Assembly: GCA_041665325.1 (NCBI GenBank)
Contig: JBAYJB010000003.1
Span: forward strand, 1,502-65,501
Source of the DNA: Minisyncoccota bacterium
Lineage (GTDB): Bacteria > Patescibacteriota > Minisyncoccia > Phycocordibacterales > PALSA-1337
Reading direction: 5' to 3'
Length of the DNA: 64,000 nt
Shown here: one piece after another, positions 16,041-35,754 of the stretch
Layout: each line of letters opens with the position of its first letter
Numbering within the stretch: position 1 is the first letter of the stretch
The notes under the pieces: generated by a model
What the model was told of the DNA's origin: nothing
Database searches by the model: none
Seen by the model: only the letters and a program-made list of their open reading frames with translations
Position numbers and translations under genes: made by a program

Positions 16041-18224
16041 TTATTTCTGGATCTCCTTGATGGACGCATCTATCTGATCCTTGTATTCCGGATGATCCTT
16101 GGCGATCTGTCGGAGCGTAGCCACGGCCGCCGAGAGCTGTCCGGCGGTATATTGGGCTTGGGCCAGCTGGATAGCGGCGCCGGCATTCTTGGGGTCGATC
16201 TTCAGGAGGGCTTGGTATATGTCCAAGGCCTTGGAATAGTCCTTGACTGCCATGTAAGCCTGGGCGACCTGCGGCGACTGGAAGATCCCCGTATCGTCCG
16301 CAAACATCTGACGGGCCGCGGCGTCTTTGCCAGCGATGATGAGAGCCACAACATAAGTACTCTTGACCGACACATTATCCGGTGCCGCGTCATATGCAGC
16401 CTTCAGGATATCGACGGCCTCGGCGGCTTTGCCGGAGTTGATGAGACTGATGCCCAACTGGAGACTGATCGACTGTTTGGCTGGCGAGAGCTCATGCGCC
16501 GTCTGTAGCAGAGCGACCGCAGCTGCCGATTGGTTGACGACATTCAGGAATGATCCGCCGAGAGTGTAGATGCGGGCGTCCTTCATGGGCGTAGCGGCGA
16601 TCTGATCCGTGATGGCTTTGTTCGCCAGATCGTAGAAAGCCTGCTTGGTAGGACCGGGGACCTGTTGGTTGCCGATGACGCCGCTCGCGCAAGACAAGAG
16701 CTGTTCACGGATCTCCTGATTGGCTGTGTAGACGTCGATGGCTAGAACCTTCTCGAAAAGAGCGACATCCGGCTGTGAGCCGCAAGCTTGGAGCGCCCTG
16801 ATGAGACCGGTGTTGGCCTTGATCACCCGGACATTGAGGAAATAGATGCCGAAGATAAGGACGATGATGATGACAGGTAGGGCGACATATTCGACAGCTT
16901 CGACGGGCATCGGCTTGTCACCGATCATCTTGATCGGACGGCCTGGGCGCAGAGAGTCAGCGAACCCGAGCGCCGTGAAGAACAGGACGTAACTAGCCAG
17001 GTTGTCGAAGACGAAGATGTTGTGGACGGCATAGCCGGCCAAGAGGCCAGTGAGGATGCTCTTCTCCCCGACAGTGAGTGAGGATCTCCAGATCGAGAAA
17101 AGGAATAGGATATATAGAGACAGGTAGGCGAGCAATCCGACGATACCCGAAGCGGTCAGCCAATCGAGGAAGACACTGTGGGCGCGGTCGAACCATTGCT
17201 CCTGATTCCACATCTTTGGTTCATAATTGGCGTTGAAGATGTAGTTGAAATTCTCCTGACCCCAGCCCAAGATCGGACGCTCGGCAAAGCCCTTCACGGC
17301 CATCGGCCAGATATAGCCGCGGGCTTGAGTCTTGTTCTCTTCCCAGGAGATCGAGGCCATGCGCTGTAAGGTCTCGTTATTCTGGATGAACGGCTGATGA
17401 CGATTGGCCCAGAATACCAAGCTGACCAAGACGATGAGAGCGACGCCGCCTAGAGCCACACCGCGCGACTTCCTGGACTCCTTCTTGCCAAAGACGACAT
17501 ACAGGAGAAGGGCCAAGACAGCGCCGCCTACGAGACCGAGGATCGTGCCGCGGGTAGAAGTCTCGAAGACTTCAAAGGCGAACAGAAGCGCGAGGATCAG
17601 GTATGCCCAGCGCAAAAAAGAGGCATTATTGATCTGCCGAGCTTTGGCCACGAGGAACATGTAAGCGGCCAAGCCGGCATTCCAGAGCATGTATACGGCC
17701 ATGTATGCGGCGTTGCCGAGAGAGGCATCGATACGAGAAGACCCTTGGTGGATGGCTGCCCAACCAAAGAACTGGAAGAGACCGTAGATGCCGACGATGA
17801 GGGCGATGAAGAGCTCGACATTCAAGAATCGATGCCACATCCGCTTCCCCTCTTCGCCGGAACCGAAGATATTGGTAGTGACGAGGAAGAAGGCGCCGAG
17901 GTGAGCGATAGTGAGCCATCCCTCCATACGCTCGAAGTTGGACCAGATGCTACGAAGCGGGTTGACGCCCAGGAGATCGGCGGCCAAAGTGACTAGAGTG
18001 AAGATGCCGATGCCGATCGTGAGCGGCGTCCACTTGGGCCGATACTTGGCGTCGAGGAAAGCTAGGATGAGCCAGGCGGCCAGAGCGACCTCTACGAGGA
18101 TCCTGAAATAGAAAGCCTTGCCGGTGATGAACGGGAAGAAAAAAGGATTAGCGATGATGAGGGGGAAAACTGGGACAAGGAAGATAGCGGCTAGGGCGAG
18201 GAAGCGAGCGGTTTTTTTGATCAT
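16041..18224 (-). CDS. O-antigen ligase/polymerase-family (Wzy_C-like) polytopic membrane protein with a C-terminal TPR-repeat domain.
   Basis: ~12 predicted TM helices with a large periplasmic loop (…RGTILGLVGGAVLALLLY…) typical of the WaaL/Wzy family. The C-terminal ~300 aa form Ala-rich TPR-like repeats. Start placed at MIKKTARF, Met29 of the listed ORF (the listed ORF begins at TTG). Confidence 0.7.
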   Translation of the reverse strand: MIKKTARFLALAAIFLVPVFPLIIANPFFFPFITGKAFYFRILVEVALAAWLILAFLDAKYRPKWTPLTIGIGIFTLVTLAADLLGVNPLRSIWSNFERMEGWLTIAHLGAFFLVTTNIFGSGEEGKRMWHRFLNVELFIALIVGIYGLFQFFGWAAIHQGSSRIDASLGNAAYMAVYMLWNAGLAAYMFLVAKARQINNASFLRWAYLILALLFAFEVFETSTRGTILGLVGGAVLALLLYVVFGKKESRKSRGVALGGVALIVLVSLVFWANRHQPFIQNNETLQRMASISWEENKTQARGYIWPMAVKGFAERPILGWGQENFNYIFNANYEPKMWNQEQWFDRAHSVFLDWLTASGIVGLLAYLSLYILFLFSIWRSSLTVGEKSILTGLLAGYAVHNIFVFDNLASYVLFFTALGFADSLRPGRPIKMIGDKPMPVEAVEYVALPVIIIVLIFGIYFLNVRVIKANTGLIRALQACGSQPDVALFEKVLAIDVYTANQEIREQLLSCASGVIGNQQVPGPTKQAFYDLANKAITDQIAATPMKDARIYTLGGSFLNVVNQSAAAVALLQTAHELSPAKQSISLQLGISLINSGKAAEAVDILKAAYDAAPDNVSVKSTYVVALIIAGKDAAARQMFADDTGIFQSPQVAQAYMAVKDYSKALDIYQALLKIDPKNAGAAIQLAQAQYTAGQLSAAVATLRQIAKDHPEYKDQIDASIKEIQK

Positions 18225-18301
18225 GGTGGTAAGGGTACTATAACATGGCCTATTTGCAAAGTTTAATTGAAAAAACAGGCCCAAAATGCTAGCATGGCCC
18301 C

Positions 18302-19126
18302 ATGTCAACGGCCGTCACCGTCATCCGCCCCAAGCGGTTATTCCACCTCGCCGACCTCAAGGAACTCTGGAATTACCGGGAGCTTTTGTATTTCTTCAGC
18401 TGGCGGGACCTCAAGGTACGCTACAAGCAGACAGCGATCGGCGTCCTCTGGTCGGTCCTACAGCCCTTCATCACTATGGTGGTGTTCTCGTTCTTCTTCG
18501 GCAAGCTCGTCCAGGTGCCGTCTGACGGAGTGCCCTATCCGATCTTCGTGTACACCGGCCTCCTATTCTGGCAATTCTTTTCCGACTCCTTGAATGAGAC
18601 CAGCAACTGTCTCCTGGCCAACAAAGCCATCGTCACCAAGATATACTTCCCGCGACTGATCCTGCCGATCTCTTCTGTACTGACCAAGCTCGTGGACTTC
18701 GCGATCGCCGCGGTCATCATGATCGGTCTCATGTTCTACTATGGATATGTGCCAAGTTGGGGCGGCCTACTCATGCTGCCGCTCTTACTCGTCCTGACAT
18801 TCATGGCCGCGGTCGGGCTCGGCCTCGTCCTGGCTTCGATCAACGTCAAATATCGCGATGTGCGCTACGCCCTGCCCTTCTTCATCCAGATACTACTCTT
18901 CGTCACGCCGGTCATATATCCGGCATCGCTCGCCGGAAGCTATTCGAAGTTTCTGGCCTTGAACCCGATGATGGGCGTGATCCAGAGCGCCCGCGCGGCT
19001 CTCCTCGGCACTACACCGATCAACTGGACGCTCATCCTGACTTCGGCGATCGGCGGACTCATCCTGCTAGGCATCGGCTTGGTCTACTTCAAGAAAACAG
19101 AGAGGTACTTCGCAGATATCATATAG
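18302..19126 (+). CDS. wzm: ABC-2 type polysaccharide export permease (Wzm/TagG/KpsM family).
   Basis: LWNYRELLYFFSWRDLKVRYKQTAIGVLWSVLQPF is the ABC-2 permease signature. Six TM segments, 274 aa. Confidence 0.85.
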   Translation: MSTAVTVIRPKRLFHLADLKELWNYRELLYFFSWRDLKVRYKQTAIGVLWSVLQPFITMVVFSFFFGKLVQVPSDGVPYPIFVYTGLLFWQFFSDSLNETSNCLLANKAIVTKIYFPRLILPISSVLTKLVDFAIAAVIMIGLMFYYGYVPSWGGLLMLPLLLVLTFMAAVGLGLVLASINVKYRDVRYALPFFIQILLFVTPVIYPASLAGSYSKFLALNPMMGVIQSARAALLGTTPINWTLILTSAIGGLILLGIGLVYFKKTERYFADII

Positions 19127-19164: not shown

Positions 19165-19722
19165 ATGAAGCAGAAAGATAACGGTATGCTAGTGTGGATA
19201 ACGGGATTACCTGGTTCCGGCAAGACAACGCTAGCAAACGCTGTATACAAAAAAATAGGTCTTGTTATCCCAGCCATACATATCGACGGCGATCACTTCC
19301 GGGCGATCATGGGTAATGATCTGGGACACAGCATGAAAGACCGTTTAGAAAACGCCTATCGAATAACACGCCTCAACAAACACCTGACTGATCAAGGTAT
19401 CACGGTCATCTGTTCGACAGTCTCGTTGTTCAGGGAAATACACAGATGGAATAGAAAAAATCACAAAAAACTGATGGAAATATATATCGATACTCCCATG
19501 GATATCCTAATGAGGAGAGACCAAAAAGGGATGTATACCGGTGCAGCAAAGAAACAAGTCAAGAATGTACGTGGCTTCGACCAGGGTTTCGATATGCCGC
19601 AAAAACCCGATATGATCATAAGGAATACGGGCAGTCTAAAGAACTTCTTGCTCCATACTGAGAAGATTGTCAGAACTATAAAAAGAAGGAATATATCTCA
19701 TGAAAAAAAGACCAGAAAATAA
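19165..19722 (+). CDS. Adenylylsulfate-kinase-fold enzyme, CysC-like. In context it is most likely a Cj1415-type cytidine-diphosphoramidate 3'-kinase.
   Basis: P-loop LVWITGLPGSGKTTLA and APS-kinase core (HIDGDHFR...LGHS..DR.EN..R...L..GI.VI.S..S..R..R.......EIYIDTP). 186 aa. Its end overlaps the next gene by 23 nt. Confidence 0.8.
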   Translation: MKQKDNGMLVWITGLPGSGKTTLANAVYKKIGLVIPAIHIDGDHFRAIMGNDLGHSMKDRLENAYRITRLNKHLTDQGITVICSTVSLFREIHRWNRKNHKKLMEIYIDTPMDILMRRDQKGMYTGAAKKQVKNVRGFDQGFDMPQKPDMIIRNTGSLKNFLLHTEKIVRTIKRRNISHEKKTRK

Positions 19723-22069
19723 AATCTTTGGCACCAAGGCAGAAACCCTAGAGCGGCTTCATGGCCACTTGAAGAAGTCGGTGGTAGACAAACTGGTGCT
19801 CTTTTCGGTCGAGGACTGGCCGAAAGAAAAATCTGCGATCGTAACCAAGATCATCTCGACATTCCCGAAGAAGCTCCTGATCGTCAGGAGCAGCGCTTTT
19901 GCTGAGGACTCCACTAAGCAGTCGAATGCCGGTCACTTCGCTTCGCTTGGCAACGTGAAGTGCTCCGCTCCGAAGATCGAGAAGGCCGTGGAGGAGGTGA
20001 TCAGCAGATATGACGGAGATATCCGCAACCAGGCCTTCGTCCAAGAACATATCACCGACGTAGACCTAAGCGGCGTCGTCTTCACCAGAGACGTCAACAA
20101 TCTCGCCCCTTACATGACGATAAACTACGACGACTCTAGCGGTCGTACCGATACGATCACTTCCGGTCAGAGCACCGCTCATAAGACGCTCGTCATCTAT
20201 CGGGAGAAGAGGCCTATGCTGACGGACCAGAGGCTCATGAAAGTATATGCGGCAGTGGAGGAACTCGAGAAAGTACTGAAGAGCGATAGGCTCGATATCG
20301 AATTTCTCTACAAGAAGGGAGTGGTGCATATCTTGCAGGCTCGACCTCTCACCGCCAAGACCAAAGAAGCACCCAGCCTCGACAGCGTCTCCGAGATCGT
20401 GCGAGGCATCAGCGACTACATGCGTGAATCTAACGCACCGCATCCGGACCTCTACGGCGACGATACATTCTACGGGATTATGCCTGACTGGAATCCGGCC
20501 GAGATGATCGGCATCAAACCGAGACCACTGGCCTTGTCGCTCTATCGAGAGCTCATCACTGACAGCATCTGGGCGTTCCAGCGCGACAACTACGGCTACA
20601 AGAGGCTGCGCAGCTTCCCTCTCCTGGTGTCGCTCGCGGGGCATCCCTATATCGACCTGCGCGTCGACTTCAACTCGTTCATACCCAAGGCCCTCGATGA
20701 CGATCTGTCTCATCGGCTGGTGAATTTCTATCTCGACAAATTGCGTTCCGTGCCGGCGAGCCACGACAAGATCGAATTCGACATCGTCTATTCCTGCTAC
20801 ACGCTCGATCTGGACGCTCGTCTCATGGAGCTCAAGAGACACGGCTTTTCTGCCAAGGACCGGCAAGCGATCAAAGATTCACTGCTCGAACTGACCAATA
20901 AGATCATCCGTCCCGACGGACTATATAAGGAAGACCTCAAGAAGATAACCACTCTCAAGAAGAGGCTCAAGCCCCTACTCGAATCGAGGCTCACTGAAGC
21001 CAAGAAGATCTACTGGCTTATCGAAGACTGCAAGCGCTACGGCACCCTGCCTTTTGCCGGCATCGCCAGGGCGGCCTTCATCGCCATCCAGCTTTTGGAC
21101 TCTATAGTCAGCCTCGGCATCATCTCCATCGAGGAGAAAAATCTCTTCCTCAGCACTATGAATACAGTAGCCAGACACCTGTCAGAAGATATGGACAAGC
21201 TCAATAGAGGGAAGCTCCCGATCAAGGCCTTCCTCAAAAAATACGGGCATCTCCGTCCGGGGACCTACGACATCCTGTCTGAGAGCTACGAGGAGAATTT
21301 CCACAAATACTTCGACCGCGGCACCAGAGCCGCGGAACCGAGCGCGGACCACCCCAAGAAACTAACGCTCTCTTCCATACAGATGAAGAAGATTGACCGT
21401 CTGCTCAAGAAGCATGGTTTGGCAGTCGATGCCGATGAGTTTTTCCTCTTCATGAAGGAAGCCATCGAGGGACGCGAGTATGCCAAGTTCGTATTCACGC
21501 GAAATATCCATGAGATCCTCAAATCGATCAAGGCTTATGGGACGAGAATCAGTGCTACGCCGGAAGATATGTCGTACGTCGAGATCGGGGCGCTTATGAA
21601 GATGCATTCGGCGGTAATTTTGCCGATTGAAGAGAGGAAGCTCCTCGAGGATATCAAAGCCAACCGAGCTAGGCACAAGCTCAACCGCTTCGTAAAGCTG
21701 CCCCAGCTCATAACACAGCCGGAAGACCTCTATCATTTCTACATGGATAGCATCGAACCGAACTATGTGACCAGCGAGTCGGCCATCGGAAACGTCGCCA
21801 CCATCATCCGCAACACGAGCACCAAAAACATCAAGGGCAAGATCGTGTGTATCGAGAATGCCGATCCAGGCTTCGACTGGATCTTCTCGCATAAGATCAA
21901 AGGCCTGATCACCGCCTACGGCGGCGCCAATTCCCACATGGCTATCCGCGCCGCCGAACTGAACATCCCCGCCGTTATCGGTTGTGGTCCGGCGCTCTTC
22001 GATAAATGGAGCAACGCGAAGAAGATGAAGATCGACTGTCTCAATAAGAAATCCGATGTCCTCTCCTAA
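19700..22069 (+). CDS. PEP-utilizing dikinase-family enzyme (PPDK_N ATP-grasp plus C-terminal phosphohistidine swivel domain). Candidate Cj1418-type L-glutamine kinase.
   Basis: 789 aa. The C-terminal mobile-domain motif IVCIENADPGFDWIFSHKIKGLITAYGGANSHMAIRAAELNIPAVIGCG has the conserved His. There is no TIM-barrel PEP-binding domain, as in rifampin phosphotransferase, glucan-water dikinase and Cj1418. Confidence 0.75.
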   Translation: MKKRPENKIFGTKAETLERLHGHLKKSVVDKLVLFSVEDWPKEKSAIVTKIISTFPKKLLIVRSSAFAEDSTKQSNAGHFASLGNVKCSAPKIEKAVEEVISRYDGDIRNQAFVQEHITDVDLSGVVFTRDVNNLAPYMTINYDDSSGRTDTITSGQSTAHKTLVIYREKRPMLTDQRLMKVYAAVEELEKVLKSDRLDIEFLYKKGVVHILQARPLTAKTKEAPSLDSVSEIVRGISDYMRESNAPHPDLYGDDTFYGIMPDWNPAEMIGIKPRPLALSLYRELITDSIWAFQRDNYGYKRLRSFPLLVSLAGHPYIDLRVDFNSFIPKALDDDLSHRLVNFYLDKLRSVPASHDKIEFDIVYSCYTLDLDARLMELKRHGFSAKDRQAIKDSLLELTNKIIRPDGLYKEDLKKITTLKKRLKPLLESRLTEAKKIYWLIEDCKRYGTLPFAGIARAAFIAIQLLDSIVSLGIISIEEKNLFLSTMNTVARHLSEDMDKLNRGKLPIKAFLKKYGHLRPGTYDILSESYEENFHKYFDRGTRAAEPSADHPKKLTLSSIQMKKIDRLLKKHGLAVDADEFFLFMKEAIEGREYAKFVFTRNIHEILKSIKAYGTRISATPEDMSYVEIGALMKMHSAVILPIEERKLLEDIKANRARHKLNRFVKLPQLITQPEDLYHFYMDSIEPNYVTSESAIGNVATIIRNTSTKNIKGKIVCIENADPGFDWIFSHKIKGLITAYGGANSHMAIRAAELNIPAVIGCGPALFDKWSNAKKMKIDCLNKKSDVLS

Positions 22070-22075
22070 TATATT

Positions 22076-22855
22076 ATGAAAGCTATCATCTTAGCGGCAG
22101 GCATGGGAAAGAGGCTCGGCAAGTATACGGCCAATCTGCCCAAGGGTATGCTCTCATTCCGAGGCGAGACTCTGATAGAGAGGCAGGTCAGAACGCTCCG
22201 CTCCTGCGGGATAAAAGATATCTCCATCGTGACCGGTTACGAGGCCAAGAAGATCACTATCCCGGACGTGAAGTATTATCACAACAAAAGATATGCAGAG
22301 ACGAATATGGTCGAGAGCTTGTTTTGTGCCGAGAAAGAACTAAAAGGAGATGTGCTCATCGCTTATTCAGATATCATTTATGAAGATCGAGTAATCAAAC
22401 AAATGATTGAGAGCCTGGCGGATATCGGAGTTGCTGCCGATGAGGATTATCAGGGATACTGGAAGGCTCGTCTCGACAATGAGACAGACGACTTGGAAAG
22501 TCTGGTTGTAGCAAGCGGCCAAATCATCGAGCTTGGCGTTCCCTGCGGCCCGGATAAGGCCGCACTGCGCTACGTCGGCCTGATCAAGTTGTCTTCCAAG
22601 GGAGTAGCAAATATTAAGGAAGTCTATACGGAGAATAGAAAACGCTTCTTTGATTCGAGCGCTCCCTGGTTGGGATCTAAGTCTTTCAAACAGGGCTATA
22701 TGACGAGCCTGCTTCAAGCTACCATTAACGCAGGTCATGAAGTGAAGCCAGTCGTGATTCGCCGGGGTTGGATGGAATTCGACACTGAAAATGATTATGA
22801 GAGAGCCGAGGTTTGGGCCAATAAAGGCAGCTTGGGGAGATTCATAAAATTATGA
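22076..22855 (+). CDS. Nucleotidyltransferase (LicC/Cj1416-like cytidylyltransferase family).
   Basis: N-terminal MKAIILAAGMGKRLG (GxGxR) nucleotidyltransferase motif. 259 aa. Confidence 0.75.
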   Translation: MKAIILAAGMGKRLGKYTANLPKGMLSFRGETLIERQVRTLRSCGIKDISIVTGYEAKKITIPDVKYYHNKRYAETNMVESLFCAEKELKGDVLIAYSDIIYEDRVIKQMIESLADIGVAADEDYQGYWKARLDNETDDLESLVVASGQIIELGVPCGPDKAALRYVGLIKLSSKGVANIKEVYTENRKRFFDSSAPWLGSKSFKQGYMTSLLQATINAGHEVKPVVIRRGWMEFDTENDYERAEVWANKGSLGRFIKL

Positions 22856-23541
22856 AAAAGAATCAGATCGTTGGCATCACACAAAGAGTCACCGTCAACA
22901 AAAATGGCGTCAGGTGTGACACATTGGAACAGAACTACAGTACCTACTTCTCCGCTCTCGGAGTCACTCTCATACCGATACCGAACGACCTCACGAGTGT
23001 CTCCAGCTTCATCGAGTCGACACATATGAGCAAGCTTATCTTCTCCGGCGGCGGAGATATCGATCCTGATCTTTATGGCGGCAAAAGAAAAGATCCGGCC
23101 TCGTATACTGCCGATAGAGAACGAACCGAGAAAGAGCTATTCGCTTATGCGCAGAAGTCCGATATGCCCGTCCTAGGCATCTGCCGCGGCGCGCAGATGA
23201 TCAATGTGCTCTCCGGAGGAAAGCTCCTAGACCTTCGGGAGACATATGGACCGGTTCACGGGCATGTTAAAACATTCCACGACGTCGAGATAGTAGCTGG
23301 CCTCATAACCGGACTGCCAAAGGGGCCAGCGAAGGTCAACTCCTATCATGACTTTGGTTTCACCAAAAAGGAGCTAGGCCAAGGACTGGTGGCTTTCGCC
23401 AAGGCCAAGGACGGCATTGTCGAAGGCATCGGGAATATAGATAAAAAGATATATGGTATATTATGGCATCCAGAACGCGACGGCATAGACCGAGAAGAGT
23501 TGACCAAGAAGATTATCGAAGCTTTTTTATCCGATACATAA
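22852..23541 (+). CDS. Class I glutamine-amidotransferase-like / peptidase C26 hydrolase (Cj1417-like gamma-glutamyl hydrolase candidate).
   Basis: Catalytic triad motifs PVLGICRGAQMIN and ILWHPERDG. 229 aa. ATGA start/stop overlap with the upstream gene. Confidence 0.75.
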   Translation: MKKNQIVGITQRVTVNKNGVRCDTLEQNYSTYFSALGVTLIPIPNDLTSVSSFIESTHMSKLIFSGGGDIDPDLYGGKRKDPASYTADRERTEKELFAYAQKSDMPVLGICRGAQMINVLSGGKLLDLRETYGPVHGHVKTFHDVEIVAGLITGLPKGPAKVNSYHDFGFTKKELGQGLVAFAKAKDGIVEGIGNIDKKIYGILWHPERDGIDREELTKKIIEAFLSDT

Positions 23542-23551
23542 ATACATCTAT

Positions 23552-24313
23552 ATGAAACAAGGCGACTTTACAACTCTGGCGAAGAACTACATCCACCGCG
23601 CCGGATATTCGCCACTTGTGCTCGAGACTATATATAAGTATGCCGGATTTACTAAAGACACCCTGATCGCCGACGTGGCGGCCGGCACCGGCAAACTTAC
23701 AGAGAACCTCTTGGCCTACCCGAGTAGAAAGCTATTCTGTATCGAACCGAATGATGCCATGAGGGAGGAAGGCGGCAAATATATAAATGATAAAAGAGTC
23801 AGTTGGGCCAAGGGATCGGGCGAAAAGACCGGACTACCGACGGCTTCCATAGACTGGGTGACCGTGGGTTCGGCCTTCCACTGGATGGACTTGGTCGTGA
23901 CCCTGGGAGAATTCCATCGGATCCTCAAGCCCGGCGGCGTCTTCACAGCCATCTGGAATCCTCGCGATATCTCCGGTAGCGAACTACACAGTAAGATCGA
24001 GAAGAAGATCCATGATATGGCGCCTTTTATCGAGAGGAAGTCTTCCGGCTCCGGAAAATACACCGAAGACCTAGACGAGAAGATCGTCAGCACCTCCCAG
24101 TTCCGTGACATCATATATATGGAAGCCAAACATGAAGAAAAGATGAGCAAGGAAAGATATATGGGCATATGGGATTCCGTCAATGACATTCCCGCTCAGA
24201 CCGGACCGGAGCTCTGGGACAAGATCCTCGCCGAGATCAGAGCGATCATCGAGCCCTACGGTGAGATCATTGTGCCCTACAAGACCCGATCCTGGACTGC
24301 ACGAAAAGTGTAA
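23552..24313 (+). CDS. Class I SAM-dependent methyltransferase (Cj1419/Cj1420-like candidate).
   Basis: Motif I IADVAAGTGKLTENL, a motif II/III-like VTVGSAFHWMD, and LKPGGVF. Confidence 0.75.
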   Translation: MKQGDFTTLAKNYIHRAGYSPLVLETIYKYAGFTKDTLIADVAAGTGKLTENLLAYPSRKLFCIEPNDAMREEGGKYINDKRVSWAKGSGEKTGLPTASIDWVTVGSAFHWMDLVVTLGEFHRILKPGGVFTAIWNPRDISGSELHSKIEKKIHDMAPFIERKSSGSGKYTEDLDEKIVSTSQFRDIIYMEAKHEEKMSKERYMGIWDSVNDIPAQTGPELWDKILAEIRAIIEPYGEIIVPYKTRSWTARKV

Positions 24314-24323
24314 GGATAGCAAA

Positions 24324-25859
24324 ATGAATAAGCGCACAGAAATACAACTGGTCGCGTCGCACTTCCCATCTGGTCTATCCTGGCTGAACAACTTCCTCTT
24401 GGAGATCGGCGTGCTCGCCTACAACGGGGACGCGACCTTCGATGGTATGTGGCAACGGATCGGAGATCATACCTTCAGACTGAAGGAGACTGAGGAGCGT
24501 CAGAGGCAATGGCTGCCGGTCCTGAGCAAAAAACTAATCTTCGACTTTCCGGAAGATATCATGGTCAGATGGTCTCACAATCTGCCGATGATAGTCAGAG
24601 AGGAGCAGAAGACGATCTTATTTGTACGAGATGGTAGGGACGCCGTATATTCAGCCTTCAAAAGGGAGGGCCTCTATAGCTCGCTAGAAGCTATGGTCAA
24701 GGCAAGATGTGCCCCCCTGAGTCTCACCCCTCCGGAAACATGGGCGGTGTTCAATCGTCTATGGATAGAGAACGTCACTCCTTCGTGCCTGAGGGTGGTG
24801 AAGTTTGAAGACCTGAAGACAAAGCCATACGAGACCATCAAGGATATACTGGAATTCATCGGAGTAGAGCGTCGAGACGCGGACATTCTATCCGCCATCG
24901 AGTCATCTAGTTTTGAAAATGCAAAAAGAGCCGAGGTCGCGCACAAGGAACATGATCGGAGCACGATTGTGCCGACGATAAACAGAAGTGGTGCGATCTT
25001 CGAGTGGAAGGGGCGATATGACAGTGCCTCGTTATCGACATTCAAGGGGTTCCCTGAAAAGATGCTATCGTACCTCGGATATGAAACCTCCGGCAGCGAC
25101 AATAAGACAAGACCGGATGCAAAATTGCCGGGATATACTTCAGACGAGGAGAAGAAATTCGTCGAAGCGTGGCAAAGATACACGAGGACCTACCGGCAGG
25201 GACGGTGGCAATACGATATCCTCATCAAGATGCGGGAAGTAAGAGCGTGGTCCAAAAATGTGGCCCTCAAACTGCTGAGCATCGAGCTCCTCTCAAGCCT
25301 TATCAAAACAAAAGATCCATATATTAAGTTTACATATAGCCCGAACGGCGAAGACATCCTGATTGGCAACATACTGATGAAGAAAAATTCAAAGACATTC
25401 GATGATATCAACGGGTTGTATGTCAGTATCGATCCTCCCCACCCGCGAAAGTGTTCTTACACCTACTTGTTATATAATCATGGCTGGAGAGGCCTAAACA
25501 TCGTGGATGCTAGTTTATACTCCACATTCAGGAGAGATCGGCCGCACGATAAGAATTTCCTCTCGAACAATGGCGAGGGCAGCGAAAACGGTCGCCAACC
25601 AATAAAAGACCTGCTCTCCAAGAACCTTCCCCGCGAAAGATCCTTGGGTCTCCTTGTTCTCGATCAAGAGAGCAGGAATGGTGAAATGGTAGAGTCAAAT
25701 ATCTGGAGTTTACGGCCGAAGCTTGTGATTGCCAGGGATTCAAGATACTCCCCCGCAAGACCTGATGATTCGGAGCTATATTCTTTCATGAAACGGACCG
25801 GGTACAGCTTGATAGGTTGGATGAACCAGACTATGGCCTTTTTGGACCAGACAAGGTAA
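24324..25859 (+). CDS. Two-domain protein: N-terminal sulfotransferase-fold domain (PAPS-type 5'-PSB and 3'-PB motifs) fused to a C-terminal degenerate FkbM-like methyltransferase-fold domain.
   Basis: N-domain VASHFPSGLSWL (5'-PSB-like) and ILFVRDGRDAVYSAF (3'-PB RDxRD..S.Y). C-domain TYSPNGEDILIGNIL...YTYLLYNHGWRGLNIVDA is homologous to the N-terminus of the FkbM protein at 27152, but the Gly-rich SAM loop is replaced by VSIDPP. Start placed at Met48 of the listed ORF. Confidence 0.65.
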   Translation: MNKRTEIQLVASHFPSGLSWLNNFLLEIGVLAYNGDATFDGMWQRIGDHTFRLKETEERQRQWLPVLSKKLIFDFPEDIMVRWSHNLPMIVREEQKTILFVRDGRDAVYSAFKREGLYSSLEAMVKARCAPLSLTPPETWAVFNRLWIENVTPSCLRVVKFEDLKTKPYETIKDILEFIGVERRDADILSAIESSSFENAKRAEVAHKEHDRSTIVPTINRSGAIFEWKGRYDSASLSTFKGFPEKMLSYLGYETSGSDNKTRPDAKLPGYTSDEEKKFVEAWQRYTRTYRQGRWQYDILIKMREVRAWSKNVALKLLSIELLSSLIKTKDPYIKFTYSPNGEDILIGNILMKKNSKTFDDINGLYVSIDPPHPRKCSYTYLLYNHGWRGLNIVDASLYSTFRRDRPHDKNFLSNNGEGSENGRQPIKDLLSKNLPRERSLGLLVLDQESRNGEMVESNIWSLRPKLVIARDSRYSPARPDDSELYSFMKRTGYSLIGWMNQTMAFLDQTR

Positions 25860-25874
25860 CTTAAACAAGAAGAC

Positions 25875-27155
25875 ATGAGCAAACCGATAATAGAAGTCAG
25901 GAATATTAGCAAGCGCTACGATATCACACATACGCATGGCGGCTATGTGGCCTTGCGCGATGTCCTGACAACGATCATGCGTCGGCCATTCTCCTTCTTG
26001 GCGCACAAGGCCAAGCGCGCCGTCGGCCTCGAGAAAAAAGAAGAATTCTGGGCGCTCAAAGATGTGAGCTTCGCCGTAAATAGGGGCGAGGTCATCGGGG
26101 TAATCGGCGCGAACGGCGCCGGCAAGTCCACCCTGCTCAAGATACTCTCCCAGATCACGCCGCCCACCGGAGGCGAGGTCATCCTGCGAGGCCGGGTCGG
26201 CTCCCTTCTTGAGGTCGGTACCGGCTTCCATCCAGAATTGACCGGTCGCGAAAATATCTTCTTGAACGGGGCCATCCTCGGCATGAAGAAACAGGAGATC
26301 GCCGCGAAGTTCGATCAGATCGTCGACTTCGCAGGGATCGAAAGATTCTTAGATACACCTGTCAAGCACTATTCGAGCGGTATGTATGTGCGGCTGGCTT
26401 TCTCCGTAGCCGCTCACATGGAGCCGGATATCCTCCTCGTCGACGAAGTCCTAGCTGTAGGTGATGCAGAATTCCAGAAGAAATGCCTCGGTAAGATGGA
26501 CGAGATCACTAGGAATGAAGGCCGAACTATCATCTTCGTGAGCCATAGTCTGAATACGATCCGAGACCTATGCCCAACTACAATCTTGATGAAGGAGGGG
26601 CGTATAGACCTAGTCGGTCCGACCGACGAAGTGATCGACCATTATCAGGAAGAGATCAAGGGGCTGCGCTCTATCGATCTTCGAAATGAAACTAGGAGGC
26701 GTGGCACCGGAGCAATCAAATTGACAGATTTTTATGTCGAAAACTCTGACGGAAGCAAATCAACCATGGTCAAAAGCGGAGAATCCACCACTTTCGTATT
26801 GTCTTATGAGTGCGCAAAACCAGAGAATGTAAAAACTGCTGATGTTGGCATATCTATAAATAGGAACGGGGCACCAATCGCGACTTTTTATAGTTCATAC
26901 GTCAAGAGCTCCTTATCCGACATTGCTACATCTGGACAATTCCGCTTCTCGGCCGAAAATATTCCGCTCGCTGAAGGCACTTACGGCATTGGCGCACGCG
27001 TACTTGCGAATGATGTCGAGGCCGACTGGCCAAAATCAGAAATCGGCCAACTCGAGGTTTCAAATCCGACAGAATTCAAGGAGAAAGGATTTCGCACGGG
27101 GGCGGGCTCAGCAGTCATCATAAATGGCCTTTGGAGTCACATCCCTTCCAAATGA
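25875..27155 (+). CDS. wzt: ABC transporter ATP-binding protein Wzt/TagH-type with a C-terminal carbohydrate-binding (Wzt_C-like) extension.
   Basis: Walker A GVIGANGAGKSTLLKIL, signature YSSGMYVRLAFS, Walker B ILLVDEVLAVGD. A ~150-aa C-terminal beta-rich extension follows. 426 aa. Confidence 0.85.
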   Translation: MSKPIIEVRNISKRYDITHTHGGYVALRDVLTTIMRRPFSFLAHKAKRAVGLEKKEEFWALKDVSFAVNRGEVIGVIGANGAGKSTLLKILSQITPPTGGEVILRGRVGSLLEVGTGFHPELTGRENIFLNGAILGMKKQEIAAKFDQIVDFAGIERFLDTPVKHYSSGMYVRLAFSVAAHMEPDILLVDEVLAVGDAEFQKKCLGKMDEITRNEGRTIIFVSHSLNTIRDLCPTTILMKEGRIDLVGPTDEVIDHYQEEIKGLRSIDLRNETRRRGTGAIKLTDFYVENSDGSKSTMVKSGESTTFVLSYECAKPENVKTADVGISINRNGAPIATFYSSYVKSSLSDIATSGQFRFSAENIPLAEGTYGIGARVLANDVEADWPKSEIGQLEVSNPTEFKEKGFRTGAGSAVIINGLWSHIPSK

Positions 27156-27868
27156 AAAAAACGTTGAAAGCCATGATCCGAGCGTTAGTCAAGCTGATTC
27201 CGCTCGAATTTATTGAGCAGATGATTTCCTTGAAGATGGGCTATCCAACGATCTCGTATGGTCCAAACGGAGAAGACGCCATTTTAAGGAACATGCTCCG
27301 CGGCATAAGCGGCGGCTTCTACATAGATGTTGGCGCATATCATCCCAATAGGTTTTCTAATACACGCACCTTTTACAATGATGGCTGGTCCGGCATAAAT
27401 ATAGATGCGATGCCAGGTAGCATGAAAGCGTTCATGAAAGAGCGCCCCAGAGATATCAACCTCGAATCAGCCGTATCTGACAGGACCGAGACATTGACAT
27501 ATCACGTGTTTGCGGAACAAGCATACAACACCTTCTCTCATGAATTGGCAACGGAGTGTGTAAAGTCAGGGAAAAACAAAATACGCGAGATAAAACTCGA
27601 CACGATGCGGCTTGTAGACATCCTCGATGAGTACATGCCGAAAGACAAAATAATAAATTTGCTTTCGATCGATGTGGAGGGATACGATATGGCGGTTCTC
27701 CGATCAAATGATTGGATAAGGTATCTCCCCGAGGTCATAGCTATAGAAGAAATTGGCTTCGACGTCGAGGCTCCCCAGAAATCAGAGATATTCAACTTCC
27801 TCAAAAGCAAAGGTTACCATCTGGAAGTGGCTATGCCCAAAACGATATTTTTCCGTCTACACAAATGA
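27152..27868 (+). CDS. FkbM-family SAM-dependent methyltransferase.
   Basis: GFYIDVGAYHPNRFSN...GINIDAMPGSMKAF...ESAVSDRTETLTYHV matches the FkbM-family pattern. Start placed at MKKTLKAM, forming an ATGA overlap with the wzt stop. Confidence 0.75.
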   Translation: MKKTLKAMIRALVKLIPLEFIEQMISLKMGYPTISYGPNGEDAILRNMLRGISGGFYIDVGAYHPNRFSNTRTFYNDGWSGINIDAMPGSMKAFMKERPRDINLESAVSDRTETLTYHVFAEQAYNTFSHELATECVKSGKNKIREIKLDTMRLVDILDEYMPKDKIINLLSIDVEGYDMAVLRSNDWIRYLPEVIAIEEIGFDVEAPQKSEIFNFLKSKGYHLEVAMPKTIFFRLHK

Positions 27869-29574
27869 AACCACTTAAGACCCCTATCCTGTTCATTGCC
27901 TTCAATCGTCCAGGACCTACTAAGGATGTTTTTGCGGAGATCCGTAAGGCACGCCCCGAAAAACTCTTCGTGGCAGTCGATGGCCCGAGAAAAGACCGGC
28001 CAGAAGATGTGGACAAAGTAAACAAGGTTCAGGAGATAGTGAGCCAAGTAGACTGGCCATGTGAAGTAAAAAAACTCTTCAGAACAGAGAACCTCGGATG
28101 CAAAATCGGCGCGACTTCGGCTATCACATGGTTCTTCGAACATGTCGAGGAAGGCATCATTGTGGAAGACGACTGTCTGCCGGAACAATCCTTCTTTGCC
28201 TTCTGTTCTGAAATGCTCGAGCATTTCCGCAATGAGCCGAGGGTAGCCATGATCTGCGGGTATAACATAGAGAAGACTTCTGATCTTCCGTATTCCTATA
28301 CCTTCTCACGCTACGGACATCTCTGGGGCTGGGCTTCATGGAAAAGGATCTGGGATCAATACGATGTGACCATGAAAGTTTGGGACAATATTGATAACCG
28401 CAAGAAGATTAGAAAAGCCATGGATGATTATCGGCAATGGAATTATCGCGAGTGGCTATACAATGAGACCTACGAGGGTCGCAAGGATACGTGGGACTAC
28501 CAGTGGGAATCATATCGCCTACTTCATAGTCAGATCTGCGTGATCCCAAATAGGAACATGATCAGAAATCTGGGTTTTGGCGCCGATGCCACTCACACCA
28601 AGCAAACTACTTCGCACCTCGTCATTCCAGGACAAACCATGAAGTTTCCTCTAGCACATAATCCAGACCTGGTAGCCAGTGACTACTATGATCGACTACT
28701 CCGCCCCAAGATCAAAGCCCAAAGCCGACTGCGGAGATCGCTCAAGGATAGAAGCTTTAGACTGGGGAAACTATTGCTCCCGCCATTCATATATCAGTTA
28801 GTCAGGAAGCTCATCCGGGGCACAAAAGTATGGAAGCCTATCTGGAATACCCTTGATTATGAACCGATGGCCGGAGTGAAGATGTTCTTTGACCCTTCCG
28901 GCTCCTGGCAGAGCAAGATGAAGAATGGGTCGTATGATAAGTTCATGTTCGACCGAGTATCCGCCATCGGCGCCGAAGGCAAGGTGATCTACGATATCGG
29001 TGCACATGTCGGATACCATTCCCTCTATTTCGCCCGGCTTGTTGGTAAAAACGGCAAGGTTATCACGATTGAACCTAATAAGAAGAACTTTGAGCGCCTA
29101 AAGAAGAACATAGACGAAAACAAGGATCTGAAAGAAAGGATATCAGCATTTAATATTGCGGTTGGAGACAAGGATGGGAAAGTGGAATTCAACATAAATG
29201 AAGATGTCGAGGGAGGTCGTAGCACTGGCAGCTTCATAGGCACGGCCGACACATTCTCAAGCCGCGAGACATATAAGAATAAGGGGTTCACAAAAACTTC
29301 TGTTGACCTAGTGACTATAGATTCATTTGAGAAGATGCTTAGCATTCACGACGCTCCAGACATCATCAAAATCGACGTTGAGGGCGCCGAGTCATTGGCT
29401 CTCGAGGGCGCCAGGGGAATCTTACTCGCTAAGAAACCGGTGCTTTTTGTCGAGATCCATTCGATGAGAAACATGTCAGATGTCATGAACTTCTTACACT
29501 CGATATCATATGAGGCCAAGATCGCTAATATTGAGGGCAATGGGGTGTGTTATATAGAGGCACACGCTAAGTGA
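27865..29574 (+). CDS. Fusion of a GT-A-fold glycosyltransferase-like domain (EDD motif) with a C-terminal FkbM-family methyltransferase.
   Basis: N-domain ILFIAFNRPGPTKDVF...LFVAVDGPR...GIIVEDDCLP. C-domain VIYDIGAHVGYHSLYFARLVGKNGKVITIEPNKKNFERLKKNI...IIKIDVEGAESLALEGA is classic FkbM. ATGA overlap with the upstream gene. Confidence 0.7.
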   Translation: MKPLKTPILFIAFNRPGPTKDVFAEIRKARPEKLFVAVDGPRKDRPEDVDKVNKVQEIVSQVDWPCEVKKLFRTENLGCKIGATSAITWFFEHVEEGIIVEDDCLPEQSFFAFCSEMLEHFRNEPRVAMICGYNIEKTSDLPYSYTFSRYGHLWGWASWKRIWDQYDVTMKVWDNIDNRKKIRKAMDDYRQWNYREWLYNETYEGRKDTWDYQWESYRLLHSQICVIPNRNMIRNLGFGADATHTKQTTSHLVIPGQTMKFPLAHNPDLVASDYYDRLLRPKIKAQSRLRRSLKDRSFRLGKLLLPPFIYQLVRKLIRGTKVWKPIWNTLDYEPMAGVKMFFDPSGSWQSKMKNGSYDKFMFDRVSAIGAEGKVIYDIGAHVGYHSLYFARLVGKNGKVITIEPNKKNFERLKKNIDENKDLKERISAFNIAVGDKDGKVEFNINEDVEGGRSTGSFIGTADTFSSRETYKNKGFTKTSVDLVTIDSFEKMLSIHDAPDIIKIDVEGAESLALEGARGILLAKKPVLFVEIHSMRNMSDVMNFLHSISYEAKIANIEGNGVCYIEAHAK

Positions 29575-29578
29575 TCAC

Positions 29579-30520: not shown

Positions 30521-30544
30521 CGCTTTAAGACTAATATCAGCCAC

Positions 30545-33175: not shown

Positions 33176-33220
33176 GTCATAAAGAAAACATCGGTTATCG
33201 CGCTCCGCAAAAAATTGATT

Positions 33221-34123: not shown

Positions 34124-34212
34124 GAAAGGTGTCGTTCTATCCGAAGGACGCGATATTGAGGGGATAATTTAGCAAAATACTGCCCCGAAGAAGGTGGTTA
34201 GCAAGAAGTAAT

Positions 34213-35220: not shown

Positions 35221-35714
35221 CGCTCCTTCAGTGCCTGGATGATTGGAATATGGATGAGCAGAAGGTCCTCTGGCATCTCTGTCAGAGGAAAGAACTTGGC
35301 GATATCACTCTCCTCGACATTGCCCGGCTTCTCGCAAACAAACATAAGAGTGATGACATCTCCACGGGGGCTTTCGCCGATGCCATTGCCGGGTTGATAT
35401 TGGAACCATCTGTAGAACTCGTAGGGTGTAGATGACGACATACCCATCTCACTCGTGATGACCCTGTCTAAGGTATCCTCGAATTTCTCGTTCGGGAGAT
35501 GGATAGAACCGGGTATGTGCCAACCCTTGAAGAATTCATCCTCCCTATAAGTAAGAAATATCTCACGTACTCCATCATTATTCCTCATGACCGCCAATTC
35601 TGCTGCGATTGTCGGAAAGGCTAGACACCAAGCGGAAAAAACTTCAGGAGGCAATGGGAATGTCACCTTGCCCATAAGCTTGATAAGCTCGTTCTGTTCT
35701 TGAGATGCCAGCAT
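35205..35714 (-). CDS. Hypothetical protein with a degenerate Nudix box. Possible nucleotide-sugar hydrolase.
   Basis: GSIHLPNEKFEDTLDRVITSEMGM partially matches Gx5Ex7REUxEExGU; the two Glu positions are replaced. 169 aa. Confidence 0.35.
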   Translation of the reverse strand: MLASQEQNELIKLMGKVTFPLPPEVFSAWCLAFPTIAAELAVMRNNDGVREIFLTYREDEFFKGWHIPGSIHLPNEKFEDTLDRVITSEMGMSSSTPYEFYRWFQYQPGNGIGESPRGDVITLMFVCEKPGNVEESDIAKFFPLTEMPEDLLLIHIPIIQALKERYDFR

Positions 35715-35754
35715 GGCTTTGCAATAAAGTTATATGCTGTAGAATAACATACAT

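Follow-up and report, generated by a model that had tools for sequence, protein, structure and literature searches.

A six-gene cassette (positions 19165-25859) is inserted between wzm and wzt, the two genes of a glycan exporter, in the 64,000-nucleotide stretch of DNA analyzed here (the window), which comes from a MAG of a tiny, uncultured bacterium of Candidatus Paceibacterota. We consider it probable that the products of this cassette synthesize a phosphoramidate donor resembling PAPS and with it decorate a lipid-linked glycan exported by Wzm/Wzt. From folds, families, catalytic residues, linkage and co-occurrence we infer the likely substrates, products and acceptor glycan. A first-pass annotation had described the genome as CPR-like, which the host bears out, and had read the first five genes as a complete O-methyl phosphoramidate (MeOPN) pathway of the Campylobacter type. 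In Campylobacter, such enzymes serve to attach a rare phosphorus-nitrogen group to the capsule. That reading is supported by family models (no top curated match was to a bona fide CysC, PpsA, GlmU or GuaA family), IMG names, catalytic residues and co-occurrence, and no ATP sulfurylase was found. Its claim of completeness fails in one respect: the gene of a probable transferase, the sixth, was left out.

Table 1. Features of the cassette and its surroundings (window coordinates; E-values in the last column are from Pfam).
Feature	Position	Strand	Details
Wzy_C/O-antigen-ligase-like membrane protein, TPR tail	16041..18308	-	PF04932 Wzy_C 1.5e-22; TPR families
wzm, ABC-2 permease of glycan exporter	18302..19126	+	PF01061 ABC2_membrane 5.4e-17
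APS-kinase-fold kinase	19165..19722	+	185 aa from ATG at 19165; PF01583 APS_kinase 1.9e-36
Dikinase-like enzyme	19700..22069	+	789 aa; PF00391 PEP-utilizers 2.6e-15; PF01326 PPDK_N 3.9e-12
Nucleotidyltransferase	22076..22855	+	PF12804 NTP_transf_3 2e-17
C26 hydrolase	22852..23541	+	PF07722 Peptidase_C26 2.7e-32
SAM methyltransferase	23552..24313	+	PF08241 Methyltransf_11 6.5e-14
Sulfotransferase-fold/FkbM-like fusion	24324..25859	+	PF00685 5.5e-11
wzt, ABC ATPase with C-terminal carbohydrate-binding domain	25875..27155	+	PF00005 1.4e-22; PF14524 Wzt_C 9.8e-10
Remaining same-strand glycan operon	27131..33175	+	PF05050, PF01370, PF08421, PF08484

The five ORFs of the original description lie where it had placed them, and all five Pfam domain calls are significant. 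They are co-directional, are flanked by wzm and wzt, and overlap or nearly abut one another: the start of the dikinase-like gene overlaps the end of the kinase gene by 23 nt, 6 nt separate its stop from the nucleotidyltransferase gene, the latter shares a 4-nt ATGA overlap with the C26 gene, and a 10-nt gap precedes the methyltransferase gene. Promoter and terminator scans of the locus gave chance-level results only, and the operon was therefore called solely from gene spacing and strand.

The same genes travel together widely. In a linkage sample of 80 loci that spans more than 15 phyla, the glutamine-kinase gene had as neighbors a nucleotidyltransferase gene in 75, a C26 hydrolase gene in 72, a kinase gene in 70 and a methyltransferase gene in 63. 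The number of species genomes with the cassette is at least 589, and its carriers include several other CPR lineages and one giant-virus MAG. The cassette is not rare, and the window locus is a good, unexceptional example of it. The suggestion of a new biological context was overstated in this respect, although our literature search found no paper tying MeOPN to Patescibacteria.

The dikinase-like protein, whose domains run from ATP-grasp through a helical domain to a phosphohistidine swivel, is predicted from its sequence to be an L-glutamine kinase of the Cj1418 type. It scored 963 bits against NF004508 (cutoff 501) over residues 5-787 of 789, versus at most 60 bits against any NCBIfam model of PEP synthase or Rph, and the Pfam scan found no PEP/pyruvate TIM-barrel domain in it, in agreement with the earlier call of an ATP-grasp/swivel-His enzyme that lacks a PEP domain. 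The swivel histidine (H746, in a GGANSH motif) is invariant in 24 of 24 and 76 of 76 homologues. Relatives at 45-52% identity bear the IMG name 'glutamine kinase'. The AF2 model has a pLDDT of 86.2, and the best full-length fold match was rifampin phosphotransferase (E 1.7e-24).

The kinase gene would encode a CDP-amidate 3'-kinase of the Cj1415 type. Its best NCBIfam match, NF004041 (171 bits, cutoff 127), is also matched by cassette-linked kinases of other phyla, whereas the apsK equivalog TIGR00455 fell just short of its cutoff (133.4 vs 138.7), a result that speaks against a bona fide CysC. The LGF and ISP[Y/F] of solved APS kinases are replaced in the window kinase by LGH and VSLF; this signature is found in 59 and 57, respectively, of 63 cassette-linked kinases, for which it can be written LG[H/Y] and TIS[L/M]F. 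Kinase and dikinase are fused in P0061, P0073 and P0104.

The nucleotidyltransferase is without any specific curated model, and its best match among solved structures is LicC, a CTP:phosphocholine cytidylyltransferase (1jyk, 6.8e-12). Its GxGxR motif is present as had been described, and G9, G11, R13, K23 and D99 are invariant across 67 cassette-linked homologues. Relatives at 58-61% identity are called 'L-glutamine-phosphate cytidylyltransferase' in IMG, pointing to a CTP:phosphoglutamine cytidylyltransferase of the Cj1416 type. The C26 protein is a predicted gamma-glutamyl-CDP-amidate hydrolase of the Cj1417 type. NF045546, the model of that name, was its best NCBIfam match over the full length (8.4e-23), which argues against a bona fide GuaA, though the score is 81.5 bits where the cutoff is 250, and the protein is the most divergent member; C26 proteins of cassettes in other phyla also match this model, with up to 191 bits in Sulfuricurvum (Campylobacterota). 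The expected Cys and His-Glu are retained as C111, H206 and E208, which are invariant in 63 homologues and line up with the triad region in C26 enzymes of solved structure.

The methyltransferase ranks fourth among the partners in conservation: a homologue (30-56% identity) adjoins the glutamine-kinase gene in 63 of the 80 loci, usually abutting the kinase or dikinase-like gene, and the CPR locus L088 has one at 73% identity. The enzyme may O-methylate the phosphoramidate, a role given here by inference because Cj1419 and Cj1420 are without an assigned function in C. jejuni (PMC11800397). The earlier matching of the proteins to Cj141x enzymes stands by way of family models, IMG/KEGG-derived names and synteny.

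The protein encoded by the sixth gene joins a sulfotransferase-fold N-domain (residues ~1-260) to a degenerate FkbM-like C-domain, the latter 27% identical (E 1e-23) to the FkbM protein encoded at 27131-27868. Its AF2 model (pLDDT 92.1, pTM 0.90) is accompanied by top Foldseek matches that are all PAP/PAPS-bound sulfotransferases (E ~1e-7), and in the 3'-phosphate motifs R102 and S110 are invariant across the family, with R221 and G223 near-invariant. The position of the sulfuryl-contacting Lys in the PKSGTTW loop is apparently Pro, a tentative assignment from a low-scoring alignment. The gene forms the end of the cassette in five CPR or probable-CPR loci (L081, L082, L088, L089 and L090) and also shares the cassette operon in Bacteroidota, Sulfuricurvum and Thermodesulfovibrionales loci; five of seven sampled family members lie within a glutamine-kinase operon, and one relative carries a fused SAM methyltransferase. 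The protein is likely a (methyl)phosphoramidate transferase. A CysQ-type 3'(2'),5'-bisphosphate nucleotidase gene (TIGR01331, 252 bits) lies in or beside the cassette in 10 of the 80 loci, and accompanies it in the Yanofskybacteria locus L089 as well, which fits a 3'-phosphonucleotide by-product.

In the pathway that we propose on the model of the C. jejuni enzymes, the nucleotidyltransferase would join CMP from CTP to phosphoglutamine, and the Cys111-His206-Glu208 hydrolase would remove glutamate to leave CDP-amidate, whose 3'-OH would be phosphorylated by the APS-kinase-fold enzyme. The resulting 3'-phospho-CDP-amidate would be bound by the sulfotransferase-fold protein as PAPS is by sulfotransferases, and the phosphoramidate moved to a sugar hydroxyl; the SAM methyltransferase would methylate the phosphoramidate.

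The surrounding genes agree with the first-pass placement of the pathway in a Wzm/Wzt glycan locus, with PF01061 upstream and PF00005 plus PF14524 downstream. The best NCBIfam match of wzm, below cutoff, is the galactan export permease Wzm/RfbD, and the gene product is 72% identical to that of the wzm preceding the cassette in the Patescibacteria locus L090. The cassette lies beside wzm/wzt in L003, L082, L086 and L090, and in L003, L082 and L090 it is abutted by a Wzt with Wzt_C. The Wzy_C-like protein may act as ligase of the exported glycan. Downstream of wzt, the glycan operon encodes the FkbM methyltransferase, an epimerase/C-methyltransferase fusion and two further proteins, one of 620 aa that ends in an FkbM domain and one of 313 aa without a Pfam match.

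The same donor could serve a different outcome, either an unmethylated phosphoramidate or an acceptor other than the Wzm/Wzt glycan (e.g., a protein or lipid), and we regard this as unlikely. Unmethylated phosphoramidate does occur in C. jejuni (PMC9561416), knockouts of Cj1419/Cj1420 caused no visible change (PMC11800397), 17 of the 80 loci lack the methyltransferase, and the window holds at least five other methyltransferase genes. On the other hand, the methyltransferase gene keeps its place next to the cassette in most loci, a transferase relative is fused to such an enzyme, and wzm and wzt flank the cassette here and lie beside it elsewhere. Were this outcome the true one, the methyltransferase would act on a sugar.

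It is less probable still that the chemistry has diverged, with the dikinase-like enzyme phosphorylating another amide or amine, or the nucleotidyltransferase using some nucleotide in place of CTP, so that another nucleotide-activated phospho group would result. The window nucleotidyltransferase shares only 30-49% identity with its counterparts at the 80 loci, its nearest relatives are CPR/DPANN proteins that NCBI places in the 'phosphocholine cytidylyltransferase family', and the low score of the C26 protein points the same way. Yet the dikinase-like protein keeps 43-60% identity to cross-phyla homologues, with ~130 invariant positions, none of the catalytic residues is lost from the three partner enzymes, and the other loci have the same gene order and coupling.

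As had been stated, the window contains no detectable sat or cysDN: neither a Pfam scan of essentially all its ORFs of at least 150 aa nor a six-frame motif scan found ATP sulfurylase, CysD or CysN, and a motif search of 1.59 Mb from 90 related loci found no sulfate-activation genes. Sulfation is a very improbable alternative, in which a true APS kinase would make PAPS for glycan sulfation by the sulfotransferase-fold protein and the remaining three enzymes would be unrelated. In its favor, PF01583 is the Pfam family of APS kinase and PF00685 that of PAPS sulfotransferase, the kinase is just 5 bits short of the apsK cutoff and the transferase's top structural neighbors are all sulfotransferases; against it stand the missing sulfate activation, the kinase signature, the overlap or fusion of the kinase with the dikinase-like gene, the glutamine-kinase operons housing the transferase subfamily and, tentatively, the apparent Pro.

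We compared the phosphoramidate cassette with known systems. Rifampin phosphotransferase (RPH-Lm, PDB 5hv1/5fbs) and PEP synthase/PPDK share the three-domain architecture of the dikinase-like protein (ATP-grasp, a helical domain for the substrate, swivel His) at just 14-16% sequence identity; PEP synthase/PPDK differ from it in having the TIM-barrel. The chemistry of the C. jejuni MeOPN pathway, with Cj1415 as CDP-amidate 3'-kinase, Cj1416 as cytidylyltransferase, Cj1417 as hydrolase and Cj1418 as L-glutamine kinase, is summarized in PMC11800397. The window has the same five folds, likewise clustered and apparently co-transcribed in an ABC-exported surface-glycan locus, a likeness drawn from family models (NF045546 is named for Cj1417), names and synteny. 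The gene order is kinase-GlnK-NT-C26-MT in the window, whereas the gene numbering of C. jejuni gives MT-MT-GlnK-C26-NT-kinase, Cj1419/1420 being methyltransferases and Cj1421/1422 transferases. The candidate transferase in the window is the sulfotransferase-fold/FkbM-like fusion, where C. jejuni has Cj1421/1422; glycan export is by Wzm/Wzt, with Wzt_C as the binding domain, where the C. jejuni capsule has KpsMT; and the host is a Paceibacterota MAG rather than Campylobacter.

Archaeal Borg elements have a predicted MeOPN-like cluster that comprises a glutamine kinase, a cytidylyltransferase and a hydrolase (bioRxiv 10.1101/2024.11.05.622173), which like the window cassette lies outside Campylobacter in a surface-glycan region. 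Unlike the cassette, it is known from structure matches only, has no described kinase or sulfotransferase-fold gene, and belongs to an archaeal extrachromosomal element. With the PAPS system (CysC, PAPS sulfotransferases and CysQ) the cassette shares the kinase and transferase folds, the 3'-phosphate-binding motifs and, at other loci, accompanying CysQ-type genes; it differs in having no sulfate-activating enzyme, in a kinase without LGF and ISP[Y/F] whose gene is coupled to those of the glutamine kinase, cytidylyltransferase and hydrolase, and in the transferred group, which would be phosphoramidate rather than sulfate. Finally, E. coli O9a requires for export a terminal phosphate and methyl cap, which the carbohydrate-binding domain of its Wzt reads (PMC3482155, PMC9445017). 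Its WbdD/Wzt system has in common with the window Wzm/Wzt dependence, Wzt_C and phospho-methyl-type modification genes in the transporter operon; unlike O9a, the cassette is without a WbdD-like kinase-methyltransferase and would supply a P-N group from a nucleotide donor. One idea is that this P-N group could be a chain-end cap read by the carbohydrate-binding domain of Wzt.

The first-pass annotation had placed a complete pathway for the donor of O-methyl phosphoramidate (MeOPN), encoded by five genes (19165-24313), within a Wzm/Wzt operon. ORF and Pfam calls bore out every particular of that layout, down to the overlap between the kinase gene and the gene of the dikinase-like protein, in a same-strand run whose junctions are overlaps or gaps of no more than 16 nt. 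Promoter and terminator scans were uninformative. The five genes stand as placed, but "complete" did not fit the interval, which ends before a sixth gene that encodes a sulfotransferase-domain protein and appears to belong to the same unit.

The cassette lies in a large glycan island of about 45 kb, in which Pfam identified GT1, GT2, GT4, PMT_2, FkbM, GtrA and Wzy_C/TPR domains, and which is flanked by genes for SecA, MurB, GatB, Obg and a Mur ligase. The G+C content of the island is 0.44-0.53 versus 0.55-0.58 in the flanks; across the glycan operon (22001-36000) it is 0.44-0.49, versus 0.55-0.58 in the flanking housekeeping DNA, as is typical of surface-glycan islands that are exchanged horizontally. 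An 876-aa epimerase/C-methyltransferase fusion probably supplies this glycan with a C-methylated deoxysugar. The three PMT_2 proteins and the GT1-GtrA fusion suggest further extracytoplasmic glycosylation with polyprenyl-phosphate sugars.

Genes of the cassette and of the surrounding glycan island, with their window positions
Feature	Position	Strand	Domains and junctions
wzm	18302-19126	+	PF01061 ABC2_membrane
APS-kinase-fold kinase, 185 aa	19165-19722	+	APS_kinase (Pfam)
Dikinase-like protein, 789 aa	19700-22069	+	PPDK_N (PF01326) and PEP-utilizers (PF00391); 23-nt overlap with kinase gene
Nucleotidyltransferase, 259 aa	22076-22855	+	NTP_transf_3; starts 6 nt past previous stop
C26 hydrolase, 229 aa	22852-23541	+	Peptidase_C26; 4-nt overlap with preceding gene
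SAM methyltransferase, 253 aa	23552-24313	+	Methyltransf_11; 10-nt gap before
Sulfotransferase-domain protein, 511 aa	24324-25859	+	Sulfotransfer_1; 10-nt gap before
wzt	25875-27155	+	ABC_tran (PF00005) and Wzt_C (PF14524, 9.8e-10); 15-nt gap before
Epimerase/C-methyltransferase fusion, 876 aa	30545-33175	+	NAD-dependent sugar epimerase/dehydratase, zinc-binding and C-methyltransferase modules; PF01370, PF08421, PF13489, PF08484
Three PMT_2 (ArnT/protein-mannosyltransferase-like) membrane proteins	37507-39264, 39982-41433, 46541-48307	all -	One fused to GT2 domain
GT1-GtrA fusion	49349-50860		
TraG/VirD4-like type IV secretion coupling protein	53061-54902	-	PF10412, PF12696, DUF87; just past glycosyltransferase block

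Family models and residues of the kinase bear on whether the cassette activates sulfate. The kinase, a predicted CDP-amidate 3'-kinase, passed the NCBIfam model NF004041 (171 bits, cutoff 127), did not pass the apsK equivalog TIGR00455 (133.4 bits, cutoff 138.7) and scored far under the cutoffs of other CysC models. NF004041 was also the best model, at 169-211 bits, for five cassette-linked kinases from other phyla. In APS kinases, the Phe of an LGF motif stacks on the adenine of APS. Comparison of 63 cassette-linked kinases with three solved APS kinases (7yq0, PAPSS2 and 8a8h) revealed that LGF is replaced by LG[H/Y] in 59 of the 63, and that the ISP[Y/F] of the solved enzymes is replaced by TIS[L/M]F in 57; the window kinase carries LGH and VSLF. 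Among the ORFs of the 64-kb window, we detected no ATP sulfurylase (Sat), CysD or CysN, in agreement with the first reading, and sulfurylase/CysDN motifs were absent from the 1.59 Mb of 90 related loci. The motif differences, together with the absence of sulfurylase and CysDN from the 64-kb window and the related loci, make sulfate activation an unlikely function of the cassette, and we rejected it.

The 789-aa protein, a predicted L-glutamine kinase, matched NF004508 (PRK05849) of NCBIfam end to end with 963 bits (cutoff 501). It consists of an ATP-grasp and a swivel phosphohistidine domain, and since its Pfam matches are PF01326 and PF00391 only, the PEP/pyruvate TIM-barrel domain is absent, as had been proposed. 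The catalytic H746 is invariant in 76 of 76 homologues, and many relatives with 45-52% identity bear the IMG label "glutamine kinase". In its AlphaFold model (pLDDT 86), the protein is closest to full-length rifampin phosphotransferase. PEP synthase or PPDK identity was rejected on scores of at most 60 bits, compared with PEP synthase cutoffs of 598-1063, as were the rifampin phosphotransferase and prodigiosin ligase models, which also gave no more than 60 bits versus the 963 bits of NF004508. Three homologous proteins of 928-962 aa (P0061, P0073 and P0104) are natural fusions of an APS-kinase-fold domain with a glutamine-kinase homologue. As independent evidence, these fusions argue that the two proteins act in one pathway.

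The gene of the nucleotidyltransferase, the candidate CTP:phosphoglutamine cytidylyltransferase, adjoins the glutamine-kinase gene and is coupled to it. Its product has generic NCBIfam matches only, with no specific curated model; GxGxR (G9/G11/R13), K23 and D99 are invariant among cassette-linked homologues, and the best solved relative is LicC, a CTP:phosphocholine cytidylyltransferase. GlmU and RmlA identities were discarded, as they gave only motif-level matches at the N terminus, far under the cutoffs. IMG labels two relatives (58-61% identity) "L-glutamine-phosphate cytidylyltransferase" and others "choline kinase", and NCBI assigns relatives to the "phosphocholine cytidylyltransferase family". 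DPANN archaea also carry members of this clade. The closest relatives, at 56-66% identity, are a mixture of CPR bacteria and DPANN (Woesearchaeota and Nanoarchaeota), which suggests that the gene has been exchanged between these two groups of ultrasmall organisms.

For the C26 protein, the best NCBIfam match was NF045546, "gamma-glutamyl-CDP-amidate hydrolase", which it covered in full at 81.5 bits versus a cutoff of 250; GuaA and TrpG identities were rejected because they scored lower still. NF045546 was the best model for all cassette-linked C26 proteins elsewhere, at 110-191 bits, likewise under the cutoff of 250, and the top score of 191 bits came from Sulfuricurvum, which belongs to the same phylum as Campylobacter. 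The catalytic triad, C111/H206/E208, is retained and does not vary among cassette-linked homologues. The first-pass annotation had counted top profile matches to CysC, PpsA, GlmU or GuaA, or loss of the catalytic Cys and His residues, against its own reading. Neither was seen: NF004041, NF004508 and, though under its cutoff, NF045546 score best, and both H746 and the C26 triad are unchanged across their homologue sets.

Residues 1-260 of the sixth gene's 511-aa product form a sulfotransferase domain (PF00685, 5.5e-11). An AF2 model built on an alignment of 60 relatives (pLDDT 92.1, pTM 0.90) had as its best Foldseek neighbours exclusively PAP- or PAPS-bound sulfotransferases, with a TM score of about 0.55 to PAP-bound SULTs. 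Across the 60 relatives, the 3'-phosphate motifs RxxxxxxxS and RxGxxGxWK are kept, with R102 and S110 invariant and R221, G223 and W228 nearly so, and His85 is near-invariant. The 5' loop, whose family consensus is PSGxxW, places a Pro opposite the Lys of the solved SULT, an assignment that is tentative because this stretch of the alignment has a negative score. The C-terminal half resembles FkbM proteins and has no glycine-rich SAM motif. Its last 210 residues (25224-25859) share 27% identity (E 1e-23) with an FkbM protein encoded at 27131-27868, with SIDPPHP replacing the paralogue's glycine motif IDVGAYHP and a deletion of about 40 residues; this part of the protein may have lost its activity or taken on another role.

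An exhaustive HMMER search identified 673 cluster representatives of the sulfotransferase-fold family, whereas a word-indexed search gave only three. We sampled seven representatives across the identity range for gene context. In five, the gene shares an operon with those of the kinase, the methyltransferase, a glutamine-kinase homologue and the C26 hydrolase. The nucleotidyltransferase is present in four of these operons; the last gene of the other one is truncated at the contig edge and lacks a Pfam record. Another lies on a short contig without cassette genes. The most distant member (L087:6630-9343) has as neighbours one gene with a pyruvate-kinase domain (PF00224) and one with an APS-kinase fold; we detected no homologue of the glutamine kinase at this locus, which may represent another route to a 3'-phosphorylated donor. 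One relative in the family is fused to a SAM methyltransferase.

Approximately 25 of the best 80 genome loci encode, along with the cassette, a member of a second sulfotransferase-like family (PF13469), which hhalign relates to the first with a probability of 94.6%. A neighbour-gene cluster of about 340-aa proteins (18 loci) that looked sulfotransferase-like by eye was supported by neither Pfam nor hhalign. In 10 of the 80 loci (e.g. L032:4907-5755; TIGR01331, 252 bits), the cassette contains or adjoins a gene for a CysQ-type 3'(2'),5'-bisphosphate nucleotidase, and in a Yanofskybacteria locus this gene stands between the glutamine-kinase and nucleotidyltransferase genes (L089:11334-12092); the window has no CysQ-type gene. 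Such an enzyme would fit disposal of a by-product of the 3'-phospho-CMP type. Taken together, fold, motifs, operon linkage and CysQ point to a PAPS-like donor, a sulfotransferase-fold user and release of a 3',5'-bisphosphate nucleotide.

We scanned a single genome for each GTDB species with the 789-aa protein as query and found a relative in at least 589 genomes. Within 10 kb of the 789-aa-type gene in the best 80 of these loci, we found the nucleotidyltransferase in 75, the C26 hydrolase in 72, the kinase in 70 and the methyltransferase in 63, usually in a tight operon. The taxa include Omnitrophota, Bacteroidota, Bdellovibrionota, Myxococcota, Alpha-, Beta- and Gammaproteobacteria, Firmicutes, Acidobacteriota, Planctomycetota, Melainabacteria, Spirochaetota and Sulfuricurvum. 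Campylobacter was not among these best 80 of at least 589 loci, and PDB sequence searches with the window proteins matched no Cj141x entry. A B12-binding/radical-SAM protein (789-1043 aa) and a short-chain dehydrogenase recur beside the cassette in Sulfuricurvum and two metagenome contigs (L015:5079-7448 with 4207-5085; L085:1122-5144; L086:12369-16309).

Most of the proteins closest to those of the window come from Patescibacteria (Paceibacterota, "Pacebacteria", Yanofskybacteria and Daviesbacteria). We compared three contigs whose relatives of the 789-aa protein are assigned to CPR by NCBI. Their gene orders are kinase-methyltransferase-glutamine kinase-nucleotidyltransferase-C26-sulfotransferase (L088), ABC exporter-kinase-methyltransferase-glutamine kinase-CysQ-nucleotidyltransferase-C26-sulfotransferase (L089) and wzm-wzt(Wzt_C)-kinase-glutamine kinase-nucleotidyltransferase-C26-methyltransferase-sulfotransferase (L090). 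The last has the cassette order of the window, and its wzm shares 72% identity with that of the window; its cassette follows both exporter genes, while that of the window stands between them. These contigs indicate that the cassette recurs in CPR and that the window locus is one example of it. In a contig that bears the label of a giant-virus MAG (IMGVR_UViG_GVMAG-M-3300024261-33_000001), homologues of the C26 hydrolase, nucleotidyltransferase and glutamine kinase are consecutive (L091:4579-8370; 29, 32 and 35% identity to the window proteins, respectively), and no kinase or transferase match was found in a 14-kb stretch of it; this three-gene core would make CDP-amidate. Our comparisons show the putative donor pathway to be a mobile, conserved cassette in hundreds of species, including several ultrasmall CPR lineages.

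From the folds, residues and linkage observed, and with step chemistry modelled on the C. jejuni enzymes (summary in PMC11800397), we infer the following substrates and products. Glutamine would be N-phosphorylated via phospho-His746, after which cytidylyl transfer, removal of glutamate and 3'-phosphorylation would follow in that order. The sulfotransferase-fold protein would then move the phosphoramidate onto the glycan, and O-methylation, the presumed role of the methyltransferase, would complete the modification. Family models, conserved residues, synteny and the names given by third parties support the membership of these proteins in the pathway.

The biochemistry of the pathway in C. jejuni is already known, relatives are publicly annotated as glutamine kinase, and the cassette is widespread. 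MeOPN has been treated as Campylobacter-specific (PMC9561416; PMC3907429), and a similar cluster was reported in archaeal Borg elements (bioRxiv 10.1101/2024.11.05.622173). The literature that we searched contained no link of the MeOPN pathway to Patescibacteria and no report tying MeOPN or Cj1421 to sulfotransferases. Beyond current descriptions, our comparisons suggest a transferase candidate with a sulfotransferase fold, a CysQ link and an association with Wzt_C. The sulfotransferase-fold family, often with a CysQ-type phosphatase, is a concrete candidate for the transfer step. CPR surface chemistry probably governs attachment to hosts, and the cassette reaches several such lineages.

The comparison also suggests a possible role of the P-N group in export. 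The window exporter consists of an ABC-2 permease and an ABC ATPase with a Wzt_C carbohydrate-binding domain (Pfam), and the cassette lies between or beside wzm and a Wzt_C-bearing wzt in the window and in three relatives' loci (L003, L082 and L090). In E. coli O9a, the phosphate-plus-methyl cap added by WbdD controls chain length, and the transporter's binding domain reads such caps (PMC3482155, PMC9445017). This precedent and the Wzt_C domain beside the cassette raise the idea that the P-N group is a chain-end cap, which, on gene position, we put forward tentatively. The combined reading, in which the sulfotransferase-fold protein transfers phosphoramidate from 3'-phospho-CDP-amidate in place of PAPS and the (methyl)phosphoramidate is a non-reducing-end cap that stops growth and is read by Wzt_C, we consider less likely than not. 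If it is true, P-N-capped glycans would be widespread, in CPR, many phyla and a giant-virus MAG, rather than a Campylobacter speciality.

The predicted components resemble several known systems and depart from them at defined points. CysC adenylyl-sulfate kinases combine LGF, ISP[Y/F] and a partner sulfurylase, whereas the window kinase has none of the three (for the sulfurylase, within 64 kb). Rifampin phosphotransferase shares its arrangement of ATP-grasp, helical and swivel-His domains with the model of the 789-aa protein, in which there is no PEP domain. PAPS sulfotransferases have their fold and 3'-phosphate motifs in common with the 511-aa protein, but their PKSGTTW loop corresponds, in a tentative alignment, to FPSGLSW. 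Finally, the cap proposed for the window glycan would correspond to the methyl-phosphate cap found in E. coli O9a, with a P-N group instead.
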